Below are positions 39,532 through 59,030 of a stretch of DNA of 64,000 nucleotides, piece by piece (the stretch's first letter is position 1; each line of letters begins with the position of its first letter). Where the stretch lies: NCBI GenBank assembly GCA_043799385.1, contig JAZDNV010000001.1, positions 1 through 64,000 of the forward strand, in the 5' to 3' direction. Position numbers and translations under genes: made by a program. The DNA comes from Candidatus Aenigmatarchaeota archaeon. Lineage in GTDB: Archaea; Aenigmatarchaeota; Aenigmatarchaeia; GW2011-AR5. The notes below the pieces were generated by a model that ran no database searches, was not told the origin of the DNA, and was given only the letters and a program-made list of their open reading frames with translations.

Positions 39532-39789
39532 TTAAGAAATCTCTTTTTCAGAAACTATCACAAAGTCTCCAACGGACTTGACGGAAGAGAACGGCACGAG
39601 CAGTCTATTGACTTCATCCTTCTCAAGGCTCAAATCACTTGAATATTTTGTAGGTTCCACCAGCACGATATTCAATAACTCGCCTGATTCAGAAACAAAG
39701 TTTATATCGCCAACGACGCCAAACTTTCTTCCTGTCTCTTCTGAAACAAGTATCTTCCCTATCAGGTCGCGTCCTCTATTCTTTATCAT
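39532..39789 (-). CDS. PRC-barrel protein (CdpB-like cell division factor)
   Basis: LIGKILVSEETGRKFGVVGD...VPFSSVKSVGDFVIV. Confidence 0.88.
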   Translation of the reverse strand: MIKNRGRDLIGKILVSEETGRKFGVVGDINFVSESGELLNIVLVEPTKYSSDLSLEKDEVNRLLVPFSSVKSVGDFVIVSEKEIS

Positions 39790-39864
39790 CCAATCACCTA
39801 ATTATATTCCCATCGCAGATTTAAATATTTGTTTTTGATATCGTTATTTTTATGTTAGGGATAA

Positions 39865-41082
39865 TTACGACTTTACAACAAGCGTTTTTATCCGCGGGGA
39901 AAGCCTGTAAATGAACGTCTTGTCACGCTTTTCCCTTTCAACGAGATTTTCCTGAAGCAGTATTTTCAATACGTTGTTTAACGACCGCACAGCATGCTGC
40001 CTTGACTTGTATTTTTCCAGATCGAGCATGTCGGCAATGTCGCCTGGCGAAAGCGATTTTTTGCTCAAGAAATTTATGACCTCTTTCTGCATGTTTGTCA
40101 GTCTGTCAAGAATCTTCATCGTCGTTGGCTTCTCTTCTATATCTTCGCGCAAAAGGTCGGGTGTTATTCTTCTTCTTTCCTCCTTAATTGCTAAATTAAC
40201 TAGCTCGTTTGATAATCTTAAAACTTCGCGCGGAAAGCCGCCTGTCCTCTCGTATATCATATCTATTGTTTCCGGCAGGAACGGCTCTATATCATTGCCG
40301 CCAACGCTCGCTATCCTCTTTCTAATCAACTCAAACGTTTCTTCTTTTGTTAGGGATAAAAGCTCTATTCTGGCCACGATTCTTTTTCTTAACGTTTCGA
40401 GTTTGTCTTTTATATGGTCCTCGAATATAGGCAAACCTGATAAAATAATAGACATGTTTTCCACCTGGTCGCTCAGAACGCGGAGCCATTCCAGAATATC
40501 GATATCCGCTTCATGCGATTCGTCAAACATTATAATCAGGTATTTATTTCTCAATTTTTTGTTCAGAAAACCGGAAATATCATACGTATTTTTTATGTTA
40601 GGGTTAAATGGCCTTAAAAACCATGAAATCCTGAATTTTTCTTTAAATATCCTCACAAATTCATCCGGCTTGTAAGGTGGTTTTGCGATGTAAATATGTT
40701 CATAACCTAGGGGAAGATTGTTAGAAACCCATTTTAGCAAGGTTGTCTTTCCAGATCCCGTTGGACCTGTAACTAGTATTATCTTATGCTTTTCTTCCAG
40801 CAATGATAGTATCTCATCCCGTTGCTCACTGTAGCCGACTGATATAGAAGGCGTTATTCTGAACGTGAACGGGTTAGCAGACCAACCAACATCGTTGAGC
40901 CATTTTTTGACTATTTTAGGTTCTAATCTGGCAGTTTTATGGGTTTTTTCGTATTTTTTCTCTTCTTTTTCTACTCTAGCTTCTCTCTTCTCTTCTATTG
41001 GCTTTTCTATGTTAGGGATAACTGCCACGCTTGGAGCTGTATTTTTGCTGCTCTCGTCGCTAACTGTATTCTCATCAACCAT
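39865..41082 (-). CDS. AAA+ ATPase (ExeA/Cdc6-like clade) with C-terminal wHTH
   Basis: NPF motif, Walker A GPTGSGKTT, Walker B IMFDESH, TGGFPRE, C-terminal wHTH (SPGDIAD...NLVEREK..YRL). Confidence 0.88.
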   Translation of the reverse strand: MVDENTVSDESSKNTAPSVAVIPNIEKPIEEKREARVEKEEKKYEKTHKTARLEPKIVKKWLNDVGWSANPFTFRITPSISVGYSEQRDEILSLLEEKHKIILVTGPTGSGKTTLLKWVSNNLPLGYEHIYIAKPPYKPDEFVRIFKEKFRISWFLRPFNPNIKNTYDISGFLNKKLRNKYLIIMFDESHEADIDILEWLRVLSDQVENMSIILSGLPIFEDHIKDKLETLRKRIVARIELLSLTKEETFELIRKRIASVGGNDIEPFLPETIDMIYERTGGFPREVLRLSNELVNLAIKEERRRITPDLLREDIEEKPTTMKILDRLTNMQKEVINFLSKKSLSPGDIADMLDLEKYKSRQHAVRSLNNVLKILLQENLVEREKRDKTFIYRLSPRIKTLVVKS

Positions 41083-41123
41083 ATGCCTATTATGTACAGC
41101 TGTTTTATTAAAAGATTTTCGTG

Positions 41124-41472
41124 TTCAACTTCATATTTTTCTTCGTGAAGTTCATCAAATTTTAAACAAGTTCACTAAAGTTTTATAGACTTTAATGAAC
41201 TTCATCAAATTTCACAATGAATTCACGTGAAGTTCATGAAGATCTTTTTTAATTTCGTGAAGTAAGATGAAGGTTTTGTGAAGGGTTTTGTGAATATTTA
41301 TTACGTATTTTAGTTGTAATAAATGCATAAATGTGAGTTTTTCATATAATTTCTCCAAGGTTTGGTAAGAGTATTCATATTATGTTCATTTAGCTTCATG
41401 GAATATTCATAGATGTTCATTTTAACTTCATATAACTTCACGCAACTTCACGTAATCTTCACGAAATGTTCA
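41124..41472. repeat. Helically phased TTCA/TGAA repeat arrays around an AT-rich core
   Basis: TTCA at 41374, 41385, 41395, 41406, 41416, 41427, 41437, 41447, 41458, 41469; also at 41130, 41151, 41171, 41201, 41211, 41222, 41233; TGAA at 41218, 41228, 41237, 41258, 41268, 41279, 41291. Confidence 0.9.
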
Positions 41473-41639
41473 CGAAGCCTGTTATGAATGTGGGTAAAAT
41501 TGTGAGAAATAAAGCCATTTTCGTGAGATTGAAATAATAAAATTTTAAAATTTAAATTCAAAATATTGACAATAAAAGCTGAAAACCTAAAATATTTCCT
41601 TTTTAGACTGAAAATAACACAATATTAGTGTAATTATTG

Positions 41640-41936
41640 CTAAATTTTGTTCAAAACACGAAGGAGTTTCATGATCTCGGTTATGTCCTTACCTTCCTGA
41701 AGTCTCTCGAGGACGAACGGCTTTAATTTTATGACACGGATTATCGGTTTGCCGTTGCCCAAACTGGAATCATCGACAAGCGGCTTAAGAATCCCTTCTA
41801 CGTATTTAGCCACAGTAGCCGGAGCCATTCCTAGCTCTTCGGATAACCGTCTCAACCAGATGCCGTCTGGATTAGCCCGCAAAGCCCTTACAATAGATGA
41901 AATCTTCCTATCATCAAAGCCCTTTTTCCTTCCCAC
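41640..41936 (-). CDS. Small wHTH DNA-binding protein
   Basis: IVRALRANPDGIWLRRLSEELGMAPATVAKYV HTH; probable GTG start at 41936 (track start 41954). Confidence 0.82.
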   Translation of the reverse strand: MGRKKGFDDRKISSIVRALRANPDGIWLRRLSEELGMAPATVAKYVEGILKPLVDDSSLGNGKPIIRVIKLKPFVLERLQEGKDITEIMKLLRVLNKI

Positions 41937-42080
41937 GCCTAATAAAATGAACACGTGTAAATATAAAGCTTTATTGAACCTGCATAACGAAAAAAACCGT
42001 ACTTTCTATTAAAACCAGCTAAAAACTCACATAAATTGCATAATTACTGGTTTTATACGTAGCGATTTATACATTCCAAC

Positions 42081-42116
42081 TTCATCCTTACTTCATATTG
42101 TATTCACACATTTTCA
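42081..42116. repeat. Satellite phased TTCA array
   Basis: TTCA at 42081, 42092, 42103, 42113. Confidence 0.7.
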
Positions 42117-57574: not shown

Positions 57575-57804
57575 CCCGGTGTTTTCGTTTGGAGTTTTGT
57601 TTTTATTGAAAATTTGAGAATTTTATGAAAAAAACACTACCTTACTTTCCTATAACATTGTTATTTTAATTGTTTTTTATAATATCTCCATTTGAAACGA
57701 GGGGGTGTGTTGTGGTGGTGTTAATTCAAAACAAAAAAAGATATACCACCAACCCTATTTTCCAGTAGAGATATGTTTATATATACTCCAAGAGAAAAGT
57801 AGGT
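57575..57804. other. Replication origin (oriC) with ORB elements and AT-rich DUE
   Basis: ctccaaacgaaaacaccggg (minus, 57575-57594); AT-rich 57595-57685; ctccatttgaaacgaggggg (57686-57705); ctctactggaaaatagggt (minus, 57752-57770); ctccaagagaaaagtaggt (57786-57804); directly upstream of cdc6. Confidence 0.82.
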
Positions 57805-57821
57805 ATATTCTTGGTGGTGTG

Positions 57822-59030
57822 ATGGAAGCAATAGCCAGTAATATTTTTTCCCAACATATAAACAAACCCTCGTTGTTTAAGAATAAAAATATATTGAACT
57901 CTACGTTCATACCGCCAAAAATATCATTCAGAGACGTTGAGATTGAACAGGCGGTTTCGGTACTTTCTCCGGCCCTGAGGAACTATAAGCCAAACAACAT
58001 ATTCATCTATGGCACGTGCGGAACTGGCAAGACCGTGGTTGTCAAATACGTCCTTAACCAACTCGAGGCTTTAGGCAAGAATAACATCAAAACAGTTTAC
58101 GTCAACTGCAAAATGAAGCGCGTTGCAGATACAGAATACCGCTTGCTGGCGTGTCTGCTGCGCGAACTCGGTGTTACAGTGCCGGATACAGGCCTGCCTA
58201 CAGACGTTCTTTACAGAAGATTTTTTGAGAAGGTTGACTCAAAACAGCATATAGTCCTAATCGTGCTTGATGAAATTGATACGCTATTCAACAAAGTAGG
58301 CGACGAATTCCTTTACAACCTGATAAGGATAAACAACGAGCTGAAAAACGCGCACATAAGCATAGTTGGGATAACCAACAACCTTTCTTTCCGGGAGGGC
58401 CTGGATGTAAGGATACGCTCTTCTTTGGGCGAAGAGGAAATTTTATTCAAGCCCTACAACGCCATACAACTGAAAAACATACTTTCAGAAAGAATAGCTG
58501 AAGGGTTTTGCGAGAACGTCGTTTCCGAGGATGTCTTGGGCAGATGTGCCGCATTGGCTGCGCAGGAGCATGGCGATGCAAGGCGTGCACTTGATATGTT
58601 AAGAACAGCAGGCGAGCTTGCAGAGCGCATGGGCGATACAGAAATAACTGATACGCATGTTGATTTGGCGGAGAAGAAGATTGACCTTGACCGTGTCGTC
58701 GAGACGATAAAGGCCCAGCCGAAACAGTCACAGGCGGTTCTGTGCGCGATAATGGCGTTGGAAAAACAAAGCAATGGCAAATGGAGCGATTCGCGGTTGC
58801 TCACAGGCAATGTTTTCTTGAAATATAAGGAGATAGTCAAGAACAACGGTTTGCGCGCCTTGACACAAAGAAGGATAAGCGACCTGATAGGTGAATTAGA
58901 TATGCTCGGCGTAATCACTGCGAAGGTTATTTCCAAGGGAAGATACGGCAGAACGAGGGAGATATCGTTGGCAATGGCGGATGAATTAAAGGACAAGGTA
59001 AAGGCGACCCTCTGGGAAAGATTTTTATGA
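57822..59030 (+). CDS. cdc6: Orc1/Cdc6 replication initiator
   Basis: YGTCGTGKT, VLDEID, GDARRA, C-terminal wHTH SKGRYGRTR; start ATG 57822 after GGTGGTG. Confidence 0.96.
   Translation: MEAIASNIFSQHINKPSLFKNKNILNSTFIPPKISFRDVEIEQAVSVLSPALRNYKPNNIFIYGTCGTGKTVVVKYVLNQLEALGKNNIKTVYVNCKMKRVADTEYRLLACLLRELGVTVPDTGLPTDVLYRRFFEKVDSKQHIVLIVLDEIDTLFNKVGDEFLYNLIRINNELKNAHISIVGITNNLSFREGLDVRIRSSLGEEEILFKPYNAIQLKNILSERIAEGFCENVVSEDVLGRCAALAAQEHGDARRALDMLRTAGELAERMGDTEITDTHVDLAEKKIDLDRVVETIKAQPKQSQAVLCAIMALEKQSNGKWSDSRLLTGNVFLKYKEIVKNNGLRALTQRRISDLIGELDMLGVITAKVISKGRYGRTREISLAMADELKDKVKATLWERFL

Follow-up and report, generated by a model that had tools for sequence, protein, structure and literature searches.

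The DNA analysed here, referred to as the window, is a stretch of 64,000 nucleotides from the 786-kb genome (G000) of a member of Ca. Aenigmarchaeota. Three of its genes are as originally described: a PRC-barrel gene, a gene for an AAA_22 ATPase with a C-terminal winged helix-turn-helix (wHTH), and a gene for a small wHTH protein. Phased copies of the short motif TTCA accompany them (Table 1). The box at 41106–41113 resembles the archaeal TATA consensus. Neighbouring genes include those for RPA, RadA and a DnaG-like protein, and a histone gene is found 4 kb away.

Table 1. Features of the array locus and of the replication origin in the window.
Feature	Coordinates	Strand	Remarks
PRC-barrel gene, CdpB-like fold	39532..39789	-	PF05239, 22.8 bits, over cut-off; downstream of ATPase, same orientation
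AAA+ ATPase with C-terminal winged helix, 405 aa	39865..41082	-	Variable N-terminal extension of ~55 aa; inferred array binder
TATA-like box TTTTAATA	41106..41113	-	From sequence; 24-31 nt upstream of ATPase start, touching last array unit; putative promoter
Promoter-proximal phased units, TTCA on +	41124..41236		Include palindrome TTCACGTGAA at 41222-41231
Opposite-sense run, TGAA on +	41218..41294		Relatives: 11-bp repeat of AAAACCTTCAC type, minus-strand reading
Central core	41298..41337		Inverted repeat TTATTAC-N11-GTAATAA, 41298-41322; CTCACA box, minus strand, 41332-41337
Main array, ten TTCAY units at one-turn spacing	41374..41472	+	From 10/11-bp chain count
79% AT stretch	41500..41639		Minus-strand boxes CTCACA 41501-41506, CTCACG 41522-41527
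Small wHTH gene, C-terminal helices	41640..41936	-	Likely GTG start 41936; longest ORF from 41954
Four more phased TTCA (fourth run, 42081-42113)	42081..42116	+	Upstream of small wHTH gene; spacer common to divergent ligT
Canonical origin, outside array	57651..59030	+	Palindrome 57651-57665; ORB-like box 57687-57705; cdc6 57822-59030

The ten TTCA copies of the main run start at positions 41374, 41385, 41395, 41406, 41416, 41427, 41437, 41447, 41458 and 41469, and the spacings of 11, 10, 11, 10, 11, 10, 10, 11 and 11 bp are exactly those of the original prediction. The second TTCA run (41130–41233; spacings 21, 20, 30, 10, 11, 11) and the opposite-sense TGAA run (41218–41291; spacings 10, 9, 21, 10, 11, 12) are likewise present. 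The gap between the arms is AT-rich as had been claimed, but only moderately so (75% AT versus ~60% for the window). Among chains of any 4-mer repeated in 10- or 11-bp steps, the TTCA run of ten is the longest in G000; the remaining chains are one of six, which overlaps and derives from the TTCA array, and twelve of four, and independent chains elsewhere in the genome reach four units at most. The array also forms the densest 500-bp window of TTCAY/RTGAA, with 28 sites; windows average 3.3, and the runner-up has 12. Periodicity of this kind is therefore not common in random DNA. None of the nine listed strain substitutions hits a TTCA core. The array is no assembly artefact, because contigs of other runs cover its DNA: one matches 41081–41347 with zero differences, and a strain contig spans 41098–42123.

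That the array should lie beside orthologs of the ATPase is borne out in other Aenigmarchaeota. TTCAY/RTGAA arrays with a period of 10.5 bp, on both strands, are found upstream of the AAA+-wHTH ortholog in 83 of 89 loci. The 750 nt upstream of the ATPase contain a mean of 25.5 sites, compared with 3.2 in the reversed control; six of the 89 loci have fewer than 12. Where the ATPase is missing, the array is missing as well (17/17 loci; mean 7.0 sites, maximum 11), and ligT abuts the PRC gene. Inter-site distances in 41 loci peak at 11, 21–22, 31–32, 42, 52 and 63 bp, and opposite-strand sites are phased as well; helical phasing thus holds over six turns. Spacer letters vary among loci while cores and phase are kept. 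In nearly every family the sites cluster in the 500 bp ahead of the ATPase start codon, and several relatives have one site between the TATA-like box and the ATG. Short-array families have no central gap and carry sites inside ligT.

The density of the motif within ligT depends on distance to the ATPase: 11.6 per kb where the two genes are less than 500 bp apart (27 loci), 4.3 where they are farther apart (27) and 3.0 where there is no ATPase (17). Valine before lysine or asparagine is encoded as GTG in 88 of 148 cases, versus 61 of 255 for other valines; at loci without the ATPase the figures are 11/49 versus 35/183. Up to 1.5 kb away, the odds ratio amounts to 4.4, versus a background of 1.5–2.2. 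Where the spacer is short, the adjacent ligT gene has been recoded to carry array sites. No recoding is seen near the locus in G000.

The ATPase is encoded in 106 of 151 genomes, mostly as a single-copy chromosomal gene among fixed housekeeping genes; no transposase or secretion genes are found among its annotated neighbours. The protein displays a Walker A motif (GPTGSGKT), a Walker B motif (hhhhDE), a candidate arginine finger, a GFPR lid motif and a conserved, nearly invariant RS[VI]NN[IL]L helix; these labels, and the role of each residue, follow AAA+ proteins in general. In the 405-aa protein, the Walker B glutamate is E188 and the candidate finger R234. GxGKT, D132-E133, R179 and G227-P229-R230 are invariant in 19 and in 21 ATPase sequences. 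Accordingly, the Walker A motif, Walker B DE, arginine finger and lid arginine of an active AAA+ ATPase all appear to be present. Profiles match AAA_22 (E 3e-12), TIGR03015 below its cut-off and VchTnsC (E 5e-8), and the wHTH resembles that of MecI-type repressors (E 6e-5). The top fold matches are Orc1/Cdc6 proteins (TM about 0.5). The alignment with the host's own Cdc6 has an hhalign probability of 38%, and Pfam profiles detect no Cdc6_C or Cdc6_lid domain in the ATPase, both of which are present in the cdc6 product. Prediction of a complex of two ATPase copies with ATP scored 0.00, which has no bearing either way.

The range beyond Aenigmarchaeota is taken from a few names (Nanopusillus, Nanobsidianus, Asgardarchaeia), with DNA context for two of 11 Nanopusillus-like loci; in the Nanopusillus homolog the RS[VI]NN helix has diverged, and the array is absent in the two loci read. 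No close relative was found among 16 plasmid records (<30% identity in all 15 listed) or among viral contigs, which gave ten weak P-loop matches. A first contig scan found no relatives; a second, dominated by P-loop matches, yielded one true homolog among 80 loci.

With its own wHTH, the ATPase very probably binds the array. The small wHTH protein, whose homologs begin at MGRKK, is probably not the TTCA binder, because a strong homolog is missing from families f16 and f17 (0/19 at E<1e-10), which nevertheless retain TTCAY sites. Its fold matches are MarR/TrmB-like only, none at E<1e-3. Of the 29 loci that have the small wHTH gene, 10 match a strict pattern of the central core, versus 0 of the 17 that lack it, and the CTCACA boxes of the 29 loci are strongly oriented (81 sense versus 9 antisense). 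The small wHTH may be regarded as an accessory protein tied to long arrays and CTCACA boxes. A palindrome, TATAACAnTGTTATA, considered as its site does not occur in the G000 array.

The cdc6 gene next to the ORB-like box is the only one found in G000. The canonical origin is ~16 kb from the array, as stated originally, and the array unit, TTCAY, is not an ORB; ORB-like boxes sit at cdc6, and ORB pairs accompany cdc6 in the 35 genomes looked at. Across 151 genomes, the ATPase and an origin-type Cdc6 occur together in 104, the ATPase alone in two, Cdc6 alone in three and neither in 42, which leaves five discordant genomes. Co-loss probably reflects just one or two events, a count that depends on a weak LigT+PRC tree, and the pattern suggests that two Aenigmarchaeota families have no ORB origin. 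The distance between the ATPase gene and cdc6 is usually 1–35 kb (48 of 49 same-contig pairs are within 35 kb, such pairs being biased toward short distances), and is 27 kb in a one-contig genome of 875 kb. There are exceptions: cdc6 is on another contig in G043, G052, G138 and G071 despite at least 50–80 kb of contig flanking the ATPase, and in G173 the ATPase copy with the long array is ~200 kb from cdc6 on a gapped scaffold. Origin proximity may be an effect of conserved gene order, because the ligT-PRC-CBS block persists without the ATPase. The array is conserved, phased, found at a single locus in G000, under selection at the DNA level and co-occurs with the ATPase and origin-type Cdc6.

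The proposed centromere-like role is retained as the leading reading, although it is unproven. The locus would be a two-part chromosomal module of Aenigmarchaeota, in which the AAA+-wHTH ATPase is paired with a cis site of its own. Each ATPase wHTH would read one TTCAY half-site; given the 10.5-bp period of the sites on the two strands, protomers would share one face of the helix, and assembly through the AAA+ domains would be cooperative and ATP-dependent. That the ATPase polymerises on the array is fairly likely. The complex would form at a single place per chromosome, usually near oriC, and would mark the origin region after firing for anchoring, organisation or segregation, with a partner protein in addition. 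The promoter of the ATPase gene itself would be covered as well, and the small wHTH would act as accessory factor of the long-array form. The whole, an oriC-proximal centromere-like platform with one wHTH per turn that also represses the ATPase promoter, is proposed tentatively, and segregation or anchoring as its purpose may be somewhat short of an even chance. The sequence and fold relatives of the ATPase, TnsC and Orc1/Cdc6, are DNA-assembling AAA+ proteins, which is consistent with this proposal. Against it, no motor, membrane anchor or ParA partner is found in the locus, and lineages that have lost the module show no increase in ParA/MinD genes (means 3.4 in f18, 3.6 in f14 and 3.4 in f16). 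Compensation by ParA expansion had been hinted at by five genomes and was not upheld in 151. All five genomes checked for SMC have it, whether or not they carry the module. The array touches the promoter, which fits an operator, and the site-poor loci, the lack of recoding in G000, the possible one- or two-event co-loss and the caveats on origin proximity also count against a centromere.

Replication control is a less likely alternative. The array would be an auxiliary or conditional origin, or a site similar to datA/DARS, where a Cdc6-fold ATPase on two opposed arrays, in the style of DnaA at E. coli oriC, opens the central gap or times the ORB origin. The fold matches, a conserved core flanked by two opposed arrays with ~11-bp steps, the RPA, RadA and DnaG-like neighbour genes and the loss of the module together with origin-type Cdc6 and paired ORBs are consistent with this; E. 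coli oriC has clusters of four low-affinity sites 2 bp apart (PMC6070618). However, a complete ORB origin already exists at cdc6, and the residual skew turns near 60–67 kb and not at 41 kb (a weak signal from one contig). The originally suggested second main origin is weakened by these two observations. In addition, the gap is moderate in AT content, short-array families are gapless with sites inside ligT, and the similarity to the host's own Cdc6 is low. The ATPase is no stand-in for cdc6, since only two of the 106 ATPase genomes lack that gene.

A role in transcription only is likewise less likely, about on a par with replication control. The array would be a long cooperative operator by which the ATPase controls its own operon, with the PRC and divergent genes; titration might perhaps sense origin duplication, with non-initiator Orc1-2 and tandem-binding wHTH regulators as models. 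The crowding of sites before the start codon, the site between TATA-like box and ATG, and the MecI-type wHTH favour an operator, and Orc1-2 is described as an AAA+-wH regulator and not an initiator (PMC9738581). However, 25–50 sites over 400–600 bp together with ligT recoding seem to exceed the needs of self-repression, and PRC persists without the ATPase. G000 has no second array cluster and hence no regulon built on similar arrays. A sigma-70 promoter scan was at chance level, the model being ill-suited to archaea, and RNA run X3 gave one contig with the PRC gene only, which has no bearing on array transcription.

A link through the PRC-barrel protein to FtsZ division is very improbable. PRC follows the ATPase in most genomes, and CdpB PRC barrels work in haloarchaeal division, but the same source indicates that stand-alone PRC barrels are not all division proteins (10.1101/2023.03.28.534520). 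In some genomes the PRC gene is separated from the ATPase or inverted relative to it. PRC (147/151 genomes) and FtsZ (150/151) are retained in all 39 f18 and f20 genomes that lack the ATPase (32/32 and 7/7), so obligate coupling is not supported; none of the 15 f18/f20 PRC loci examined has an array. PRC is a conserved neighbour whose presence is independent of the ATPase/array system.

Finally, that there is no specific binder, and that the array is a nucleosome-positioning signal, RNA hairpin/cruciform or set of slippage repeats, is hardly credible: in folding, the spacer outscores dinucleotide shuffles (z -3.8) and shuffles in which only the cores are fixed (mean z -1.9, 10 loci), and a histone gene is nearby, but the folding signal disappears when spacers are permuted within arms (mean z +0.42, 15 loci), a result that speaks against the hairpin or cruciform favoured by the two looser controls, no Rfam match is found, cores and phase are constant as spacers vary, and f20 loci without the array keep their histone genes. 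Spacer permutation, strain substitutions and ligT recoding agree with a DNA-level binding platform.

The array-ATPase module bears on how chromosomes are handled in DPANN archaea, which have histones, SMC and FtsZ and mostly no ParB. The array-ATPase pair, near the origin across a phylum of tiny archaea, may represent an undescribed handling of newly copied chromosomes. The module pairs one identified protein with one identified DNA site, and families f18 and f20 serve as a natural knockout, so that a single purified protein and a 560-bp fragment would suffice to test the question. If DNA segregation is its task, the module would be a partition system based on an AAA+ ATPase; if initiation control is, it would place an architecture like that of bacterial oriC next to an archaeal origin; and if the array is an operator only, it would still be an unusually long phased one.

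The module is neither a ParABS system nor an ORB origin, and no component of SegAB was seen. It resembles ParABS in having an origin-proximal cluster of sites beside its own genes, and the palindrome TTCACGTGAA, with 182 copies in 55 of 93 loci, is the inner 10 bp of parS, TGTTNCACGTGAAACA (PMC7022226). The 16-bp parS palindrome has at least three mismatches at its best match in all 93 loci, none within two. ParB-family proteins (PF02195) occur in 15 of 151 genomes, in 0 of 5 in a smaller set and in 0 of 11 in the family of G000, including G000 itself. ParABS has a ParA ATPase, whereas the enzyme here is AAA+ (AAA_22) and the array units are phased half-sites; the operon has no ParA-type (deviant Walker A) ATPase, and the only AAA_31 gene of G000 is at 15.3–16.1 kb. 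Nearness to oriC, as in ParABS and SegAB, is found here (16 kb), with the exceptions in relatives and the same-contig distance bias.

Archaeal SegAB/segS (PMC12139799) and HpaAB (PMC13722703) similarly have a direct-repeat centromere directly upstream of an ATPase operon near an origin. Their ATPase is of ParA type and binding falls to a second, small protein, whereas ATPase and wHTH are in one protein here; S. acidocaldarius segS consists of three 7-bp repeats, compared with a period of 10.5 bp. Orc1/Cdc6-ORB (PMC3914693) and the non-initiator Orc1-2 (PMC9738581) share AAA+ plus wHTH and are the top fold matches. However, the ATPase has no Cdc6 Pfam domains, the array has no ORB motif and no G-string-bearing ORB boxes on either side of an AT-rich element, and G000 has a separate cdc6-ORB origin. 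DnaA arrays of E. coli oriC and datA (PMC6070618) also show two opposed weak-site arrays, ~11-bp steps and an AAA+ protein; they differ in binding domain and motif, and the array here is in an archaeal host with its own origin, where an unwinding element would be hypothetical.

ExeA/GspA-like and TnsC/TniB ATPases share the AAA_22 domain, and databases label relatives of the ATPase ExeA or GspA. The ATPase here differs in its C-terminal MecI-like wHTH and in its fixed neighbourhood, and is mostly single copy. Tandem boxes of the PhoB/OmpR type, bound by proteins with a receiver domain, have 2–6 units in 11-bp steps; they are similar in that every turn presents a short core to one wHTH, the domains following each other head to tail. 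The array here, however, runs to dozens of units, occupies both strands and goes with an AAA+ protein. The likeness to CdpB division proteins is by PRC fold alone. No description of such an array and ATPase module was found in the literature searched. We infer a function for a module that these differences appear to set apart from the known kinds. It is conceivable, though somewhat doubtful, that it represents a new type of segregation or origin-anchoring system, in which the winged helix of a single initiator-fold AAA+ ATPase would read a phased near-oriC centromere in the absence of ParA, ParB and SegB, and which would be discarded when Cdc6/ORB initiation is given up.

The phased TTCAY/RTGAA array and the adjacent ATPase gene form a real, phylum-wide protein–DNA module, apparently undescribed so far. 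On re-reading of the sequence, the ten TTCA of the main run and their spacings match the original prediction exactly, the two further runs it claimed (TTCA and TGAA) are present, and the neighbouring genes encode, as it described, a wHTH protein, an AAA+-wHTH ATPase and a PRC barrel. A fourth phased run is also found. Similar periodicity is not common in random DNA: across the whole 786-kb genome, no other independent chain of 4-mers at 10/11-bp steps exceeds four units. The spacer also has the genome maximum of TTCAY/RTGAA density (28 per 500 bp vs a mean of 3.3).

Positions of features in the window
Feature	Position	Strand	Remarks
PRC-barrel gene	39532-39789	-	
ATPase gene	39865-41082	-	405 aa
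Spacer with array	~41083-41639		
Main run	41374-41472		ten TTCA
Small wHTH gene	41640-41936	-	
Fourth phased run	42081-42113		four TTCA
Stretch without ORF of at least 70 aa	51814-53138		1.3 kb
Palindrome TATAACAnTGTTATA	57651-57665		
cdc6	57822-59030		

Compared with a single low-depth strain contig of a public run, the sequence differs at 17 positions in 1,028 bp. Among the differences listed, nine are within the main array, all outside TTCA cores (chance ~0.01); two of them turn TTCAT into TTCAC. A further 13 over the aligned stretch fall outside that list. Interpreting the spacer as an RNA or cruciform element fails a spacer-permutation control, looser controls having favoured folding, and an Rfam search of the spacer gave no match.

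The ATPase is present in 36 of 41 near genomes and 106 of 151 phylum genomes (originally 107; the partial, weak match in G056 was removed), and the small wHTH in 32 of the 41. ATPase loci were read in 93 distinct genomes, and four with less than 500 nt upstream were removed. Arrays were sought beside these orthologs, as the original prediction proposed, and 83 of the 89 loci have at least 12 sites per 750 nt upstream (mean 25.5 vs 3.2 in a reversed control); phased chains reach at least three units in 66 loci and at least four in 41. A four-unit pattern occurs in 49 of 151 whole genomes vs two control matches, mostly adjoining the ATPase gene, with a few elsewhere. Three short phased runs are distant from that gene (L215 at G074:C3:2368, G046:C8:24735 and G104:C19:23392); one is upstream of a small wHTH gene and two are ~4 kb from cdc6.

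In 41 loci, same-strand site distances peak at 11, 21-22, 31-32, 42, 52 and 63, and opposite-strand sites are offset by +6 and -5, with whole turns added. The ideal polymer is thus self-complementary and repeats about every 10.5 bp. In the host's family, the layout towards the ATPase consists of a T-rich stretch, CTCACA boxes, a GTGAA run, a core, an 11-bp TTCAC run, mixed palindromes, a TGAA run, a TATA-like box and the start. At three loci (L132, L134, L135), TTCACGTGAA units run on into the ATPase coding sequence, within a variable N-terminal extension.

We infer from association that the ATPase is the probable binder of the array sites. In all 17 loci read from four families (f18, f20, f29, f31) the ATPase is gone, ligT adjoins the PRC gene and the array is missing (mean 7.0 sites, maximum 11); three loci of genomes with cdc6 but no ATPase match are excluded from this count. 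Families f16 and f17 have a strong small-wHTH homolog (E<1e-10) in 0 of 19, yet keep TTCAY sites. The RS[VI]NN helix of the ATPase is nearly invariant; the Nanopusillus homolog has an altered helix, and two loci read there have no array. Oriented CTCACA boxes go with the small wHTH: the 29 loci that have it contain 81 in sense orientation and 9 in antisense, vs 5 and 6 in 17 loci without it, the groups being assigned by the analyst. Weak matches to this protein persist in f18 and f20, so its loss there is not established.

At the coding level, GTGAA/TTCAC words crowd the adjacent ligT where the spacer is short (11.6 per kb in 27 loci, vs 4.3 in the other 27 loci with the ATPase and 3.0 in 17 without). 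Valine preceding Lys/Asn is encoded by GTG in 88/148 cases vs 61/255 for other valines; in loci without the ATPase the values are 11/49 and 35/183. In 10 genomes the odds ratio peaks at 4.4 within 1.5 kb, over a background of 1.45-2.2. P values for recoding are overstated, as the genomes are related and not independent. The genome under study, with its long array, has no such bias near the locus.

The closest homologs that carry a name belong to Ca. Aenigmarchaeota. The 405-aa protein belongs to the AAA_22 ATPases; its Walker A, Walker B and arginine motifs are invariant, and it ends in a C-terminal winged helix, which has a profile match to MecI. Its top fold matches are Orc1/Cdc6 (TM about 0.5). 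In a profile search, VchTnsC (E 5e-8) and Aeropyrum Orc2 (E 1.5e-5) are among the solved structures matched across the AAA+ module, ranking below midasin, Hsp104 and RuvB, which match in part. The protein is only remotely similar to the one Cdc6 of the genome (hhalign probability 38%). For the small protein, a wHTH that carries C-terminal helices, no close structure was found; the third gene encodes a PRC barrel. Related ATPases (P0046-P0076) are extended at the N terminus by about 100-280 aa, a region that looks membrane-like and zinc-finger-like in the three sequences read, and have no wHTH match. Full-length homologs P0081, P0305 and P0306 are named Ca. Asgardarchaeia; the recognition helix of P0081 differs. 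One record (G173) has two ATPase copies, one with a short array and one with a long (L041, L226), representing a paralog or a mixed scaffold.

The canonical origin sits at cdc6, given ORB-like boxes upstream in 40/40 rows (35 distinct genomes) by a lenient pattern modelled on known ORBs. Residual skew at fourfold sites, a weak signal, has its turn near 60-67 kb, with none at 41 kb. Among 151 genomes, 104 have both the ATPase and origin-type cdc6, 2 the ATPase alone, 3 cdc6 alone and 42 neither; the joint losses may represent one or two events. Both genes are on one contig in 49 of the 104, within 35 kb in 48 (median 17 kb), distances that are biased by contig extent, with gene order broadly conserved; in at least four genomes they are at least 50 kb apart. 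In the six f18 loci examined, the sole Cdc6 is a shorter paralog that follows another gene and has no ORB spacer, and three f18 genomes show no paired ORBs. Origin-type Cdc6 is absent from the 39 genomes of f18 and f20 (loci L232-L237, L242-L256); they are candidate cases of ORB-independent replication. Two ancient Cdc6 paralogs, just one tied to origins, are described by Raymann et al. (PMC3914693). The palindrome TATAACAnTGTTATA lies between ORBs in most cdc6 loci read, with up to 44 copies per genome (122/151 genomes at one mismatch), in some near the genes for the ATPase or the small wHTH; an origin-binding regulator may recognise it.

In the simplest model, the ATPase would assemble cooperatively and ATP-dependently along one helix face, confined to a single origin-proximal site. 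A centromere-like or anchoring role is tentatively favoured because there is one large site, near the origin and co-lost with it, ParB is scarce and the unit equals the parS core. Against this, no motor or anchor is seen at the locus, and ParA counts do not compensate (151 genomes). Replication control is rather unlikely, as is a role in transcription alone, and the remaining readings together are improbable. The proposed coupling to FtsZ division is opposed, as an obligate link, by the persistence of PRC (147/151 genomes) and FtsZ (150/151) in families without the ATPase. Most genomes, the host and relatives, have two to four FtsZ_C matches (three in the host).

No description of the locus was found in titles and abstract openings, subscription papers being mostly outside reach. 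The PRC neighbourhoods tabulated in 10.1101/2023.03.28.534520 or the families of PMC8204110 could already include the gene cluster, but probably not the array; the latter paper notes a module specific to Aenigmarchaeota, without any predicted function. The function of the present module is directly testable. Tested as a ParABS system, an ORB origin and a TnsC transposon, the module fails on the criteria applied, and it has no ParA-type ATPase such as SegAB (PMC12139799) and HpaAB (PMC13722703) use. The array unit equals the bacterial parS core (PMC7022226), perhaps by coincidence, since the flanks differ.
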